Assembly: GCA_031398365.1 (NCBI GenBank)
Contig: JANNND010000012.1
Span: forward strand, 1 to 56,834
DNA: 56,834 bases
DNA from: Blastocatellia bacterium
Lineage (GTDB): Bacteria; Acidobacteriota; Blastocatellia; RBC074
Direction of reading: 5' to 3'
Below, piece after piece: positions 11,547 to 16,035 of the stretch. A program made the position numbers and the translations under genes. Below the pieces are notes generated by a model. It saw nothing but the letters and a program-made list of their open reading frames with translations. It was not told the DNA's origin and searched no databases. Every line of letters begins with the position of its first letter. Positions within the stretch are counted from its first letter, which is position 1.

Positions 11547-11625
11547 GATTGTGGATTGCTGAATGCGGATGGCGAAACTTGTGCGCCTAATATTAATCCG
11601 AAATCCGAAATCCGAAATCCGAAAT
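11547..11625. repeat. Heptad-armed hairpin: (ATCCGAA)x4 perfect tandem repeat opposite a degenerate complementary arm
   Basis: 11596-11623 is four exact ATCCGAA units. 11547-11572 (gattgtg gattgct gaatgcg gatgg) is its degenerate complement with the same 7-nt period. The perfect arm lies inside the last 10 codons of ispE. Confidence 0.75.
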
Positions 11626-12516
11626 TTTCGTGAGAGCGGCTTGATATTCACTCTGGCTCAGCGTGCGCGTTGGGGCGCACCACCAATCCGTTGCACTCAA
11701 TTCATTCATTGCCTGAGCGCGTGCCGCTTCACTTTCAAAGACCGCAAAAACTGTGGCGCCGCTTCCTGACATCAAAACAGCCGTTGCATTGAAAGCCTCT
11801 AACTGCTGTTTGACCTGACCGATGAGAGGATATTGCGCGAGTGCCGGACGTTCGAGATCATTCCGTAAGTTCCATTTCGCCCCTCGCATGCGCGCGTAAG
11901 CAGCCTCCAAAGAAAACGGCATCTTATTCACGGCGAGAGGGCTTGTCAACTCAGAAGATAAATTTCCATAGATTTCGCGGGTTGGTACATTTACCCTCGG
12001 ATTCACCAATAATATATGCTCTGCCGCAATATCCGCCATGGGATAAACTTCATCGCCGCGCCCGATGCCGATGCCCGTGCCACCGAAAAAAAAGAATGGC
12101 ACATCGGCTCCAAGCTGTGCGCCGAGCCGAAACAAATCACGCGCCCCAACGTCCACTTCCCAGAGTTTTGCGAGCGCGAGCAACGTGATCGCTGCATTGC
12201 TGCTGCCGCCGCCAAGTCCCGCGCCCAGGGGAATGTTTTTCTGCAAATCAATCCGCGCGCCCTTGTCACAACCCGTCAGTTTTTGGAGTAACACTGCCGC
12301 GCGATAAATCAGATTCGTTTCGTCACACGGCACTTCGGGATGATCGCAGGTTAAGACAATTTCTGACTCGGTCAACGCAAACTGCAACTGATCGCAGACA
12401 TTCACCGTTTGCAGAATCGTGCGCAGTTCGTGATAGCCGTCGGCGCGTCGCCCTAGAATTTCGAGCGTCCAATTGATTTTGGCAAAAGAGGGAACTGCAA
12501 AATTCATAAGGTTCAA
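11593..12516 (-). CDS. ispE: 4-diphosphocytidyl-2-C-methyl-D-erythritol kinase
   Basis: AKINWTLEILGRRADGYHEL and the GHMP-kinase motif PLGAGLGGGSSNAA. The C-terminal residues ISDFGFRISD are encoded by the heptad repeat. Confidence 0.9.
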   Translation of the reverse strand: MNLMNFAVPSFAKINWTLEILGRRADGYHELRTILQTVNVCDQLQFALTESEIVLTCDHPEVPCDETNLIYRAAVLLQKLTGCDKGARIDLQKNIPLGAGLGGGSSNAAITLLALAKLWEVDVGARDLFRLGAQLGADVPFFFFGGTGIGIGRGDEVYPMADIAAEHILLVNPRVNVPTREIYGNLSSELTSPLAVNKMPFSLEAAYARMRGAKWNLRNDLERPALAQYPLIGQVKQQLEAFNATAVLMSGSGATVFAVFESEAARAQAMNELSATDWWCAPTRTLSQSEYQAALTKISDFGFRISD

Positions 12517-12630
12517 ATACGTCGTTGCTGGCTTTTGTTCGGGAAATTCGTATCTTACACTAAAATGCCCGTCCTTCAGAGTAATGGCAAAGACGGGCTT
12601 AGTTCACCCGAAGGTGATGAGTGAAGCACA

Positions 12631-13287
12631 ATGACCAATTGGCAAGAACATAATGATGAGCGATATTTTGCCCAGTTAGCAGCCGCCTTTGTTCGCGGCA
12701 GAATTTCGGTTGCGCCGGAGTTATCCGACGAAGCAGTCATTGCCGCGGGACGGGCGGCGGGCTTACGGCTCCATAAGTTCAAAAGCCAAACAGAATTGCC
12801 GCGCGTTAAGAAAGTTTTAGGAATCTTGCAGGGCCTTGCGCCCGTAAGCTTGCTCGACATTGGCAGCGGACGCGGCACGTTTCTTTGGCCATTGCTGGAT
12901 GCCTTTCCCGACCTGGAGATTATGGCGATTGATACAAATCCGATTCGCGTAAATGATATCAACGCCGTGCGGCAAGGTGGATTTGCCAATTTACAGGCCC
13001 TGGAAATGGACGCTACAGCAATTCAGTTGGAGAGCAAAAGCGTTGATGTGGTGACGGCCTTGGAAGTGCTTGAGCATTTAGCCGCTCCTGCTCTGGCGGC
13101 GGCTGAGGCGGTCCGCTTGGCGCGCAAATTTGTGGTTACTTCTGTACCTTCCAAAGAAGACCATAACCCTGAGCATATCCAGCTTTTTGATCAGGCATCG
13201 TTTGAGAAATTGTGGCTGGATGCAGGCGCGCAAAGCGTCAAAATGGATTACGTGCTAAACCACCTCATTGCGGTCGTGAAAGTTTGA
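12631..13287 (+). CDS. Class I SAM-dependent methyltransferase
   Basis: Motif I LLDIGSGRGTF, post-I MAIDTN and VVTALEVLEHL. First gene of a tightly packed three-gene unit. Confidence 0.75.
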   Translation: MTNWQEHNDERYFAQLAAAFVRGRISVAPELSDEAVIAAGRAAGLRLHKFKSQTELPRVKKVLGILQGLAPVSLLDIGSGRGTFLWPLLDAFPDLEIMAIDTNPIRVNDINAVRQGGFANLQALEMDATAIQLESKSVDVVTALEVLEHLAAPALAAAEAVRLARKFVVTSVPSKEDHNPEHIQLFDQASFEKLWLDAGAQSVKMDYVLNHLIAVVKV

Positions 13288-13293
13288 TTACCA

Positions 13294-14079
13294 GTGACAA
13301 CGCTTTATAAATATCCACGCACACAACACATCGAAGGCTCGCGTTTGCAGCCCGGTGACGAGGACTTGGAGTCGGTCTCATTTAATCAAATCAAAGGCCG
13401 TTTTATTGTCATCGAGGAAAAGTTGGATGGCGCAAATTCTGGCATCAGCTTTAGCGCAGATGGAAGATTATTATTGCAAAGTCGCGGGCATTTTTTGGAT
13501 GGAGGCCCACGGGAAAAACAATTTGCGTTATTGAAAACCTGGGCCAGCACACACCAACAAAACCTGCAAGCTTTGTTAGGTGACAAGTATTTAATGTATG
13601 GCGAATGGCTCCATGCCAAGCACACGATTTTTAATGATGCTTTGCCACATTATTTTTTTGAGTTCGACATTTTGGATGTTAGCAAAGGCGAGTTTTTATC
13701 TACGGACAGAAGACATTCAATGTTAACGGGTTCACCAGTGGTTTCAGTGCCTGTGTTGTGGCAGGGCCGCGCAAAGTCATTGGAACAGCTTCAATCATTG
13801 GTGGCCCAGTCTTTGTACAAAAGCCAACAATGGTATGAAAACTTAGCCGTAGCCTGTGCTGAGCAAAAACAAAAATTTGAGATCGTAAAAAAGCAGTCTG
13901 ATAAGACCGCTCTGGCGGAAGGGCTTTACATCAAAGTTGAAGAGCAGGGGCGCGTGGTTGAACGTTATAAGTTTGTGCGCGCTGAATTTTTACAAGCCGT
14001 CTTTGATTCTGGTAGCCATTGGATGGATCGGCCTATTTTGGCAAACTGTCTGCGGGCTGACTGCGATATGTTTGCATGA
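13294..14079 (+). CDS. ATP-dependent RNA ligase family protein (nucleotidyltransferase-only)
   Basis: GTG start. N-terminus YPRTQHIEGS. Motif I EEK43LDGAN (KxDG). Later blocks LMYGEWL, FFEFDI and EGLYIKVE resemble ligase motifs III, IV and V. Confidence 0.75.
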   Translation: MTTLYKYPRTQHIEGSRLQPGDEDLESVSFNQIKGRFIVIEEKLDGANSGISFSADGRLLLQSRGHFLDGGPREKQFALLKTWASTHQQNLQALLGDKYLMYGEWLHAKHTIFNDALPHYFFEFDILDVSKGEFLSTDRRHSMLTGSPVVSVPVLWQGRAKSLEQLQSLVAQSLYKSQQWYENLAVACAEQKQKFEIVKKQSDKTALAEGLYIKVEEQGRVVERYKFVRAEFLQAVFDSGSHWMDRPILANCLRADCDMFA

Positions 14080-15188
14080 ATTTTCCTTACCTTCCACAAC
14101 CACCACATTATCACTTTGAGTGGGATTCGCTGCACGGCGAATTTGCCTGGGTGCGTGCGCTGCAAGGTTGCCCGCAAGACCCTATTCATCACGCGGAAGG
14201 CGATGTTTGGATTCACACCAAAATGGTTTGCGAAGCTGTTGTTGCAAATCAGGCTTGGCGCGCTTTAGCCGAGCCGGAACGCGCCATCGTGTTTGTGGCA
14301 GCACTAATGCACGATGTGGCCAAGCCTGTTTGCACGCGCCGGGAAGACGGTCGTATCACCAGTCGCGGGCATTCCAAGCGCGGCGAGATTATGGCGCGTG
14401 AGATTTTGTGGCAGATGGAAATCCCGCTACTGTGGCGCGAGCAAATTGTGAATTTGATCCGCTATCATCAAATTCCCTTTTTCCTGATTGAACGTCCAGA
14501 CGCGCAACGCAAGCTTTTTGAAGTCAGCCAAACAACCCGCAATGATTTGTTGGCGCAGGTAACTGAAGCCGATGCGCGTGGGCGAATTTGTGTTGATCAG
14601 CAAATGCTCTTCGACAATATTGCGCTTTTTACTGTTTTTGCCGAGGAGCAGCATTGTTTGAGAGTACCGCGAGCATTTCCGAGCGAACACAGCCGCTTTT
14701 TATATTTCCAAAAAGAAGACCGCGATCCAAATTACCTGGCATTTGATGATACGGGCAGTGAGGTGATCGTGATGTCCGGGTTGCCGGGGGCTGGCAAAGA
14801 TCATTGGATCAAAACGCAAGGTCCCGATTGGCCGGTAATTTCGCTGGATGCCTTGCGCGCAGAAATGAAGATCAAACCAACGGATAACCAAGGCGTAGTG
14901 ATTGCGCGTGCGCGCGACCTGGCCCGCGAACAGTTGCGGCGCAAACAGAATTTTATTTGGAATGCGACGAATTTAAGCCGTCAAATGCGGGAACGTTGTT
15001 TGAGCTTATGCGCTGCTTATAACGCAAGGATTCGGATTGTTTACCTGGAAACTTCAGAAAAGAATCTATGGGTACAAAACAAAGAGCGACATGCCAGCGT
15101 GCCAATATCCGTAATTCATAAATTGCTTTCGCGGTGGGAAGTACCCGATCTAACAGAAGCGCATGAAGTGCAATTAATTTGCACCTAA
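14076..15188 (+). CDS. HD phosphoesterase / P-loop polynucleotide-kinase fusion (HD-Pnk-like end-healing enzyme)
   Basis: N-terminal HD domain (HHAEGDVWIHT ... LMHDVAKP ... SRGHSKRGE). C-terminal P-loop VIVMSGLPGAGKDHW. The ATGA start/stop overlaps the ligase gene. Confidence 0.7.
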   Translation: MNFPYLPQPPHYHFEWDSLHGEFAWVRALQGCPQDPIHHAEGDVWIHTKMVCEAVVANQAWRALAEPERAIVFVAALMHDVAKPVCTRREDGRITSRGHSKRGEIMAREILWQMEIPLLWREQIVNLIRYHQIPFFLIERPDAQRKLFEVSQTTRNDLLAQVTEADARGRICVDQQMLFDNIALFTVFAEEQHCLRVPRAFPSEHSRFLYFQKEDRDPNYLAFDDTGSEVIVMSGLPGAGKDHWIKTQGPDWPVISLDALRAEMKIKPTDNQGVVIARARDLAREQLRRKQNFIWNATNLSRQMRERCLSLCAAYNARIRIVYLETSEKNLWVQNKERHASVPISVIHKLLSRWEVPDLTEAHEVQLICT

Positions 15189-15255: not shown

Positions 15256-16035
15256 TTAACCCATTGGCGCCAGTGTCCCAAGAATATGGTAGCCACCATC
15301 CACATAAATCACTTCGCCTGTGATGCCACGTGACAAACTGCTGGCCAAAAATAATCCTGTGTCGCCAACTTCAGCTTGTTCCGTTGCCTTTCGGAGCGGC
15401 GCGACTTCGCGGTGATGCGCGACCATATTTGTGATACCAGACACACCACGTGCAGCCAGGGTGCGAATCGGGCCAGCCGAAATCGCATTGACGCGAATGC
15501 CTTTGGGGCCGAGATCGCTGGCAAGGTAGCGCACGGTGGCTTCCAGCGCGGCTTTGGCAACGCCCATCACGTTGTAATGCGGCACGACGCGCTCTGCGCC
15601 GAGGTACGTGAGCGTAATGATCGAAGCGTTTTCGCTCATGATCGGCAATGCCGCGCGGGTGAAGGCCACCAGCGAATAGGCGCTGACCTCCAGCGCGATT
15701 TTGAATGCGTCGCGGGAAGTATTGACGAATTCGCCCGTCAAGGCTTCGCGCGGTGCAAAAGCAATCGAATGCACCAGGAAATCAAGCTTGCCGTATTCTC
15801 CGGCAAAGCTGTTCATCAACGTGGCAATTTCTTCATCATTGCCCGCATCGCATTGATAACATTTCGCGTCGGGAATAGTCGCCGCCAGTTCTTCGACATT
15901 CTCTTTCAATCGTTCGGTTTGGTAATTGAATGCGAGTTTTGCGCCCGCGTTGGCGGTGGATTGAGCAATCGCCCACGCAATGCTTGCTTTGTTTGCGACC
16001 CCTAAAATCAGGCCGTTTTTGCCTTCCAGTAGCAT
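15256..16035 (-). CDS. fabI: Enoyl-[acyl-carrier-protein] reductase (NADH)
   Basis: LEGKNGLILGVANKASIAWAIA, the ...YNVMGVAKAALEA Tyr-Lys catalytic region and SAGPIRTLAA. Confidence 0.92.
   Translation of the reverse strand: MLLEGKNGLILGVANKASIAWAIAQSTANAGAKLAFNYQTERLKENVEELAATIPDAKCYQCDAGNDEEIATLMNSFAGEYGKLDFLVHSIAFAPREALTGEFVNTSRDAFKIALEVSAYSLVAFTRAALPIMSENASIITLTYLGAERVVPHYNVMGVAKAALEATVRYLASDLGPKGIRVNAISAGPIRTLAARGVSGITNMVAHHREVAPLRKATEQAEVGDTGLFLASSLSRGITGEVIYVDGGYHILGTLAPMG

Follow-up and report, generated by a model that had tools for sequence, protein, structure and literature searches.

We analysed a 56,834-nt stretch of DNA (positions 1 to 56,834 of contig JANNND010000012.1, hereafter the window) from a 7.07-Mb metagenome-assembled genome (MAG) of a soil Blastocatellia (Acidobacteriota), and focused on a cassette of three genes encoding a class I S-adenosylmethionine (SAM)-dependent methyltransferase (MT), an ATP-dependent polynucleotide ligase (LIG) and a fusion of an HD phosphoesterase with a P-loop polynucleotide kinase (HD-Pnk). 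Results showed that MT is a dedicated partner in LIG/HD-Pnk cassettes across phyla, and we give a somewhat better than even chance to the explanation that the cassette repairs broken RNA ends and methyl-marks the repaired junction, through healing, methylation and sealing. A preliminary description of the locus had proposed an HD-Pnk/ligase healing-and-sealing module with the methyltransferase as a real third component. The dedicated synteny reported here upholds this view, whose interpretation (heal, seal and probably methyl-mark) is right in outline.

Co-occurrence of MT with LIG and HD-Pnk had been named beforehand as the check on which the proposal could fail. A sample of 201 Blastocatellia genomes was searched for MT and full-length HD-Pnk, which were detected in 26 and 24 genomes, respectively, and together in 23. 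The two genes lay within 4 kb on one contig in 19 of these 23 genomes; in three they fell on separate short contigs, probably through assembly breaks, and in the last one (G009) they were truly apart. The three genomes with MT only contained nothing but MT fragments. In all eight Blastocatellia cassettes fetched, LIG was found between MT and HD-Pnk. We then scanned public metagenome contigs using as query an alignment of 18 distant MT members that included no Blastocatellia sequence, and annotated the 80 loci recovered with our own hidden Markov models. LIG followed MT in 53 of the 56 loci having at least 1 kb of downstream sequence, and HD-Pnk was present in 38 of the 40 having at least 2.3 kb. 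Intergenic gaps, as measured in about 70 other loci, were typically about −4 to +20 nt. The variants consisted of the order HD-Pnk-MT-LIG (3 loci), an HNH-ligase fusion (2), MT and HD-Pnk without LIG (2) and a solitary MT (1). With the gene order repeated across dozens of independent loci, the tracking of LIG/HD-Pnk by MT is far beyond chance. In both HNH-PF09414 fusions, which are encoded beside MT (L085:3024-3976 and L091:1654-2676), the HNH domain is N-terminal.

A further line of evidence came from proteins in which MT is part of a ligase. A PF09414 ligase domain, a T4_Rnl2_C domain and an MT-family domain are combined in about 30 clusters of proteins, 540-580 aa long; several of these fusions carry the annotation 'Rnl2 family RNA ligase', and Myxococcota MAGs are the source of two. 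One Myxococcota fusion (P0125) contains T4_Rnl2_C and matched TIGR02307 with 134 bits, below the 197-bit cut-off, and in one Myxococcota MAG the Rnl2-MT gene is directly followed by genes for a 240-aa LIG and a 372-aa HD-Pnk. The fusion connects MT with RNA ligation in function, on grounds separate from the synteny seen in Blastocatellia. No contextual argument so far speaks more strongly for an RNA substrate than the combination of a dedicated third partner and its joining, in Myxococcota, to a bona fide Rnl2-type RNA ligase. An 832-aa 'MT + ligase' protein (P0199), considered as a triple fusion, probably reflects a high-GC cassette that was miscalled or frameshifted, and was not counted as evidence.

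The neighbours of the cassette in other genomes were also inspected. ADP-ribosylglycohydrolase (ARH) proteins were recurrent co-oriented neighbours in 14 metagenome loci, some of them fused to a Swiss-army-knife (SAK) DSP phosphatase (e.g. L027:771-3335), and proteins with a T4 gp30.3-like domain stood beside the cassette in nine loci, one of them fused to Tpt1/KptA (L027:8230-9843). These ARH and Tpt1/gp30.3 neighbours suggest that the system has a side branch involving NAD/ADP-ribose. In a Nostocaceae locus (L006:3167-6100), an LIG/HD-Pnk pair without MT is directly followed by a gene for a 977-aa protein, made up of MJ1316 (RNA cyclic-end recognition), EEP nuclease/phosphatase, 2H phosphoesterase and poly(A)-polymerase-like parts, and then by a photolyase-related gene.

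MT is not present in every locus that encodes HD-Pnk. The HD-Pnk loci of Providencia, of three Bacteroidota and of one Nostocaceae were without MT, with LIG adjacent in four of the five, and no MT orthologue was found in the three of these genomes that were searched whole. In the Bacteroidota phylum sample, HD-Pnk itself was found in 3 of 301 genomes. In the HD-Pnk tree the Providencia and Bacteroidota forms branch apart, and the Nostocaceae form is nested among MT-bearing ones, which implies that MT was lost there. LIG/HD-Pnk, whose operons are widespread, is the core of the system, and MT, a compact family, is the mark of a large sub-type: a large subset of these operons, spanning several phyla, has it as its dedicated third partner. 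As far as sequence comparison can tell, the cassette is a widespread MT-bearing variant of the known LIG/HD-Pnk system, which may already be listed in Burroughs & Aravind 2016 (NAR 44:8525). Two Blastocatellia genomes, G039 (L009:4597-6630) and G076 (L010:4066-5446), have about 1.5 kb inserted between LIG and HD-Pnk; encoded there, mostly on the opposite strand, are a nucleoside 2-deoxyribosyltransferase-like protein (PF15891) and the product, 291-498 aa long, of an unannotated open reading frame (ORF).

MT is a stand-alone class I methyltransferase, as the preliminary description had it; its Pfam matches (Methyltransf_12, 11, 25 and 23, E 1e-12 to 4e-10) are to generic class I models. At E<1e-30 the family comprises 129 clusters among 1.84 billion representative proteins and is sharply bounded. 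The protein carries the motifs H48-K-F-K51...L56-P-R58-V, L75-D-I-G-S-G-R-G82 (SAM motif I), L144-E-V-L-E-H149, S171-V-P-S...D177-x-N-P-E-H182 and H211; over 97 family members these read HxFKR..LPRV, LLDxGSGRGxFLWPL, LEVLEH and SVPSKxDDNPEHxxLF. The AlphaFold2 (AF2) model was confident (predicted local distance difference test, pLDDT, 91.4) yet generic in fold, with a helical N-terminal extension of 65 residues. In the model, a short helix after β4 holds the first three candidate metal ligands (E145, E148 and H149), and a second short helix follows β5, just upstream of the fourth, H182.

MT had been regarded as unrelated to Hen1, the methyltransferase of the bacterial Pnkp/Hen1 repair system. 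Profile comparisons lead instead to a remote kinship. Local hhalign against true Hen1 proteins from the same class gave a probability of 96% (E 2e-9), with E145/E148/H149 placed on EVIEH. Global hhalign with the 97-member profile raised this value to 98% (E 1.3e-12) and aligned E145/E148/H149/H182 with Hen1 E367/E370/H371/H419, the match of H182 to the DH of RHxDHRFEW being obtained in global mode only. In plant HEN1 the counterparts of these four residues, E796/E799/H800/H860, are the Mg/Mn ligands holding the 2′,3′-diol of the terminal nucleotide (PMC10781085), and the four MT positions are 89-96% conserved across the 97 family members. When the MT profile was compared with all PDB sequences, Hen1 chains ranked 6th, 8th and 9th, at 28 bits vs 31 bits for the top match. 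Against the curated Hen1 model MT scored 17.3 bits (E 1.3e-3), below the 340-bit cut-off, and true Hen1 proteins of the same class scored 660-725 bits. By these alignments MT is distantly homologous to the methyltransferase domain of Hen1, and it very probably acts as an O-methyltransferase with the assistance of a metal; the genomic context suggests that its substrate would be a 3′-terminal ribose.

With respect to the ligase, LIG matched PF09414 RNA_ligase (E 3e-34, 119 bits, cut-off 27) and no second domain. The motif I and the candidate motifs III, IV and V that had been pointed out earlier, along with the lack of extra domains, held in an alignment of 38 homologues: K43, D45 and G46 of K43-L-D-G were invariant, as were the motif III/IV/V-like blocks YGEWxYAKH, EGLYIKVE and RxKYVR, and E104 and K226 were invariant or nearly so. 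The protein also has an N-terminal motif of its own, K6-Y-P-R-T-x-H12 (KYPRTxHxxGS). No NCBIfam model, including those for Rnl2 and DRB0094, matched LIG at E 0.01, and no meaningful relative was found in the PDB sequence search; with no T4_Rnl2_C domain by Pfam, LIG falls outside the Rnl2 family proper (TIGR02307). The AF2 model (pLDDT 94.8) was used for a Foldseek search, whose best matches were the RNA ligases NgrRnl (Naegleria Rnl5), TbREL1, T4 Rnl2 and archaeal Rnl3 (E 1e-8 to 3e-7, template-modelling (TM) score about 0.5), and DNA ligases appeared only from E 8e-5. LIG thus models as an RNA-type rather than a DNA-type ligase, and this check, too, came out on the side of the proposal at the level of the model.

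HD-Pnk was confirmed as an HD/P-loop kinase fusion by its Pfam matches to HD (residues 56-136, E 1.6e-6) and AAA_33 (residues 230-356, E 1e-22); weak NCBIfam matches were to the CCA-enzyme HD, PSTK and Pnkp kinase models. The HD residues H39, H47, H79-D80, H99 and D166 and the P-loop G235-LPGAGK241-D242 belong to catalytic columns that showed little or no variation in an alignment of 10 sequences from four phyla, including Providencia and Bacteroidota. Full-length identity to homologues of Blastocatellia, Nostocaceae, Providencia and Bacteroidota was 38-84%, and 38-41% to the three from Bacteroidota. In the Walker A sequence GLPGAGKD (window 14778-14801) an Asp replaces the usual Ser/Thr; since G-K-D is invariant in 10/10 homologues, the Asp characterises the family and is no local defect. 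The HD-Pnk of G004 (L011:5210-6343) reads LRDIAKP for MHDVAKP and HAVNDDA for HHAEGDV, which suggests a dead phosphoesterase half. The Runella enzyme heals 2′,3′-cyclic phosphate, 3′-phosphate, 2′-phosphate and 5′-OH ends (PMC6097658).

In the mechanism that we favour, the HD domain would strip the 2′,3′-cyclic, 3′- or 2′-phosphate from the 3′ end to leave a 2′,3′-diol, and the P-loop domain would phosphorylate the 5′-OH end. MT would then bind the diol of the terminal ribose through E145/E148/H149/H182 and transfer the methyl group of SAM to the 2′-OH, after which LIG, adenylylated on K43, would join the 3′-OH to the 5′-PO4. The resulting 2′-O-methyl mark at the junction would block re-cleavage by transesterifying ribonucleases. 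The RNA substrate, the methylated atom, the order of the steps and the protective role are what we infer, and RNA is preferred because the fold of LIG is RNA-ligase-like, MT is fused to an Rnl2-type ligase and the neighbours include RNA-end enzymes.

Several observations weigh against this repair mechanism or against the part given to MT in it. Four genomes (G039, G076, G084 and G100) hold both the cassette and a true Hen1 (TIGR04074, above or near the cut-off), and therefore the two are not simple substitutes. The true Hen1 gene of G100 is immediately followed by an ORF (L021:2864-3829) whose 321-aa product is not a Pnkp; in L022 a Pnkp-like kinase-phosphatase ORF follows Hen1. Runella LIG forms ligase-AMP, yet it sealed none of the 3′-OH/5′-PO4 RNA or DNA substrates tried (PMC6097658). 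This self-adenylylation without joining, and also the frequent translational coupling or fusion of MT and ligase, would be explained if LIG sealed only together with MT, in an obligatory 'mark, then seal' route that we consider rather doubtful. The N-terminal domain of Hen1 binds and activates the ligase of Pnkp, and by analogy MT may act as a protein activator; alternatively, LIG may take only 2′-O-methylated 3′ ends.

The literature on related operons raises the question of whether the substrate is DNA, or DNA tipped with a ribonucleotide. HD-Pnk would then clean 3′-phosphate/5′-OH breaks for LIG to seal, as has been suggested for the Deinococcus operon, and MT would modify, say, a partner protein or the terminal ribonucleotide. 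Runella HD-Pnk is indeed said to dephosphorylate DNA 3′-phosphate ends as well, which counts for this explanation, as does the presence, in the Nostocaceae locus, of a photolyase-related gene downstream. The Deinococcus LIG-PARG-HD-Pnk operon, moreover, is radiation-induced, resistance to ionising radiation and mitomycin C depends in part on its HD-Pnk, and the DNA ligase activity of DR_B0100 is reported to need DR_B0098 and PprA (PMC6300522). Nevertheless, we regard a DNA substrate as unlikely: the fold of LIG is nearest to RNA ligases, with DNA ligases scoring about 1000-fold worse, MT occurs in fusions with an RNA ligase of the Rnl2 family, a Hen1/UbiG-type O-methyltransferase finds no hydroxyl at a DNA 3′ end, and the neighbours are RNA-end enzymes (Tpt1, 2H, MJ1316). 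If the substrate is RNA, the trio could still serve as a programmed module that heals, methylates and joins or circularises a specific cellular RNA during maturation or stress regulation. The cassette sits among housekeeping genes (tRNA-Gln, prs, ispE, fabI, dtd), with no toxin or nuclease gene adjacent, and archaeal Rnl3 has a comparable role other than repair, in the circularisation of C/D sRNA (small RNA) (PMC9014305). Against it stand a patchy, accessory spread (2 of 10 genomes of the genus, absence from the site in the closest relative and another locus in G152) and the fact that the housekeeping neighbours are not conserved alongside the cassette. Given this distribution, a conflict or repair module fits better than a core maturation pathway, and we hold a programmed role to be unlikely, a shade more so than a DNA substrate.

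The identity of MT itself can also be questioned, since fold and family searches would also suit an ordinary small-molecule or glycan O-methyltransferase of the UbiG/MftM kind that merely neighbours LIG/HD-Pnk. Foldseek placed natural-product O-/C-methyltransferases first (TM about 0.62) and small-molecule O-methyltransferases above Hen1; the Clostridium thermocellum Hen1 methyltransferase domain ranked 50, at TM 0.62/0.69, equal to the top. A structural similarity to C. thermocellum Hen1, of the kind put forward for checking, was found, and by fold alone Hen1 and small-molecule O-methyltransferases could not be told apart. Likewise, E-x-x-E-H with a downstream His is not restricted to Hen1. 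In E. coli UbiG the corresponding residues are EMLEH, with a THD after β5, and DFLEH occurs in two UbiG-like enzymes encoded elsewhere in the genome studied here. E-x-x-E-H...H therefore marks a Hen1/UbiG-type O-methyltransferase group rather than Hen1 alone. The best NCBIfam match of MT was MftM (NF041255, mycofactocin oligosaccharide methyltransferase; 64 bits, 1e-17, vs 17 bits for Hen1), followed by BioC, TrmB and UbiG, each scoring well short of its family cut-off, and homologues are publicly annotated as 'UbiE/UbiG-type methylase'. Assignment of MT as an MftM glycan methyltransferase was rejected, the score lying under the 200-bit cut-off of a promiscuous model that also matches the two UbiG-like methyltransferases of the same genome (51 and 47 bits). 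A mere neighbour would not be expected beside LIG in 53 of 56 loci or fused to RNA ligase in some 30 clusters, and in Blastocatellia MT was lost or decayed along with HD-Pnk. We consider this last explanation very improbable and retain MT as the probable methylating component of a proposed RNA repair cassette.

The layout of the locus is summarised in the table below. The tight packing noted in the preliminary description, with divergent ispE and convergent fabI, was read directly from the sequence: at the MT/LIG junction (...GTT TGA ttacca GTG...) the TGA stop of MT is separated by 6 nt from the GTG start of LIG, and at the LIG/HD-Pnk junction (...GCATGAAT...) the TGA of LIG overlaps the ATG of HD-Pnk as ATGA (14076-14079). 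MT-LIG-HD-Pnk is a predicted translationally coupled three-gene operon. Its promoter is presumed from position to lie in the ispE/MT interval; a scan with the sigma-70 consensus, together with a terminator scan, gave nothing above shuffled expectation. Beyond ispE, the left flank contains tRNA-Gln, prs and the gene for ribosomal protein L25, and fabI is followed on the right by an OsmC-like gene and dtd. Rfam detected only two tRNAs in the whole window and no cognate non-coding RNA near the cassette. PADLOC defence models gave weak methyltransferase matches only (mad2, 4e-7) and none for LIG or HD-Pnk; the cassette is not a catalogued defence system.

Features of the MT-LIG-HD-Pnk locus (positions in the window)
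Feature	Position	Strand	Basis or remark
ispE	11593-12516	-	Left neighbour; divergent from cassette
ispE/MT divergent intergenic region, 114 nt	12517..12630	+	Presumed to hold operon promoter; sole non-coding stretch upstream of trio
MT, class I SAM-dependent methyltransferase, 218 aa	12631..13287	+	Pfam, AF2, synteny, hhalign
LIG, minimal ATP-dependent polynucleotide ligase, nucleotidyltransferase domain only, 261 aa, GTG start	13294..14079	+	PF09414, AF2, Foldseek
HD-Pnk, HD phosphoesterase + P-loop polynucleotide kinase fusion, 370 aa	14076..15188	+	Pfam HD + AAA_33
fabI	15256-16035	-	Right neighbour; convergent with cassette

Comparison of four related genomes revealed that the ispE-fabI interval is a variable site within the genus. 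In G137 just 23 nt separate the two genes and the site is empty, and in G504 and G185 the interval is filled by a 1130-aa GH18 / polysaccharide deacetylase / GT2 gene. G504 is the closest relative, with flanking proteins 93-100% identical, and lacks the cassette at this site; in G152 the cassette is on another contig than ispE-fabI. Within the genus of the window, the trio was present in 2 of 10 genomes. The G+C content of LIG (0.46) is the lowest of the neighbourhood (about 0.52). The variability of the site and the low G+C of LIG together indicate that the cassette was acquired, or replaced another insert. The cassette is an accessory unit, gained or lost as a whole and placed here between ispE and fabI. 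A tblastn search with MT against 72,556 plasmids and 50,697 phages yielded no copies.

Among characterised ligases, LIG shares the PF09414 fold and motifs I, III, IV and V with its closest solved structures, T4 Rnl2, Naegleria Rnl5 and kinetoplastid REL1, but it has neither the C-terminal accessory domain of Rnl2 nor the N-terminal one of Rnl5, and carries instead its own KYPRTxHxxGS motif. The ligase and HD-Pnk core is also found, according to its published description, in the Deinococcus radiodurans cluster DR_B0100 (LigB)-DR_B0099 (PARG)-DR_B0098 (HD-Pnk), which includes an ADP-ribose hydrolase as an extra part, PARG there and ARH in the 14 metagenome loci described above. In contrast to our cassette, no methyltransferase is reported in the Deinococcus cluster, and the phenotypes concern DNA damage (PMC6300522).

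The closest precedent is the Runella cluster Tpt1, MTase-HIT, LIG and HD-Pnk (Munir, Abdullahu & Shuman 2018, PMC6097658). The two share the domain order of HD-Pnk and a minimal ligase ORF directly upstream whose 3′ end overlaps the HD-Pnk start; likened from the published cluster description, they also share a SAM methyltransferase gene just upstream of the ligase, and Tpt1/KptA neighbours some MT-bearing metagenome loci as well. They differ in that MT is a stand-alone protein of 218 aa with no HIT domain, in the 6-nt MT-LIG gap, which in Runella is a 152-nt spacer, and in the absence of Tpt1 from the present cluster, a 40-residue Tpt1 fragment being found elsewhere in the genome at a contig end. 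The preliminary description had envisaged a different solution to ribotoxin or anticodon-nuclease damage; since a methyltransferase beside LIG/HD-Pnk is already on record, the cassette is not a wholly different one. MT is a concrete candidate for the component missing from in vitro reconstitution of LIG/HD-Pnk.

Finally, the cassette resembles on paper the Pnkp/Hen1 system of Clostridium thermocellum and Anabaena, which likewise combines a 5′ kinase, a 2′,3′ phosphoesterase, an ATP-dependent ligase and a SAM methyltransferase, and the remote homology of MT to the Hen1 methyltransferase domain, with residues aligned to the metal ligands, adds to the likeness. Every protein, however, comes from another family: the phosphatase is of the HD and not the calcineurin type, the ligase is a separate minimal PF09414 protein instead of the Rnl4 domain of Pnkp, and MT is devoid of the N-terminal domain (about 260 aa) and the RHxDHxFEW signature of Hen1. 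The cassette partner reached 19 bits on the Pnkp model (cut-off 750). MT-LIG-HD-Pnk would represent a second, independently assembled system for healing, sealing and methylation beside Pnkp/Hen1, and if the methyl mark is confirmed, bacterial RNA repair would rely on junction immunisation as a recurrent design principle, not one peculiar to Pnkp/Hen1.

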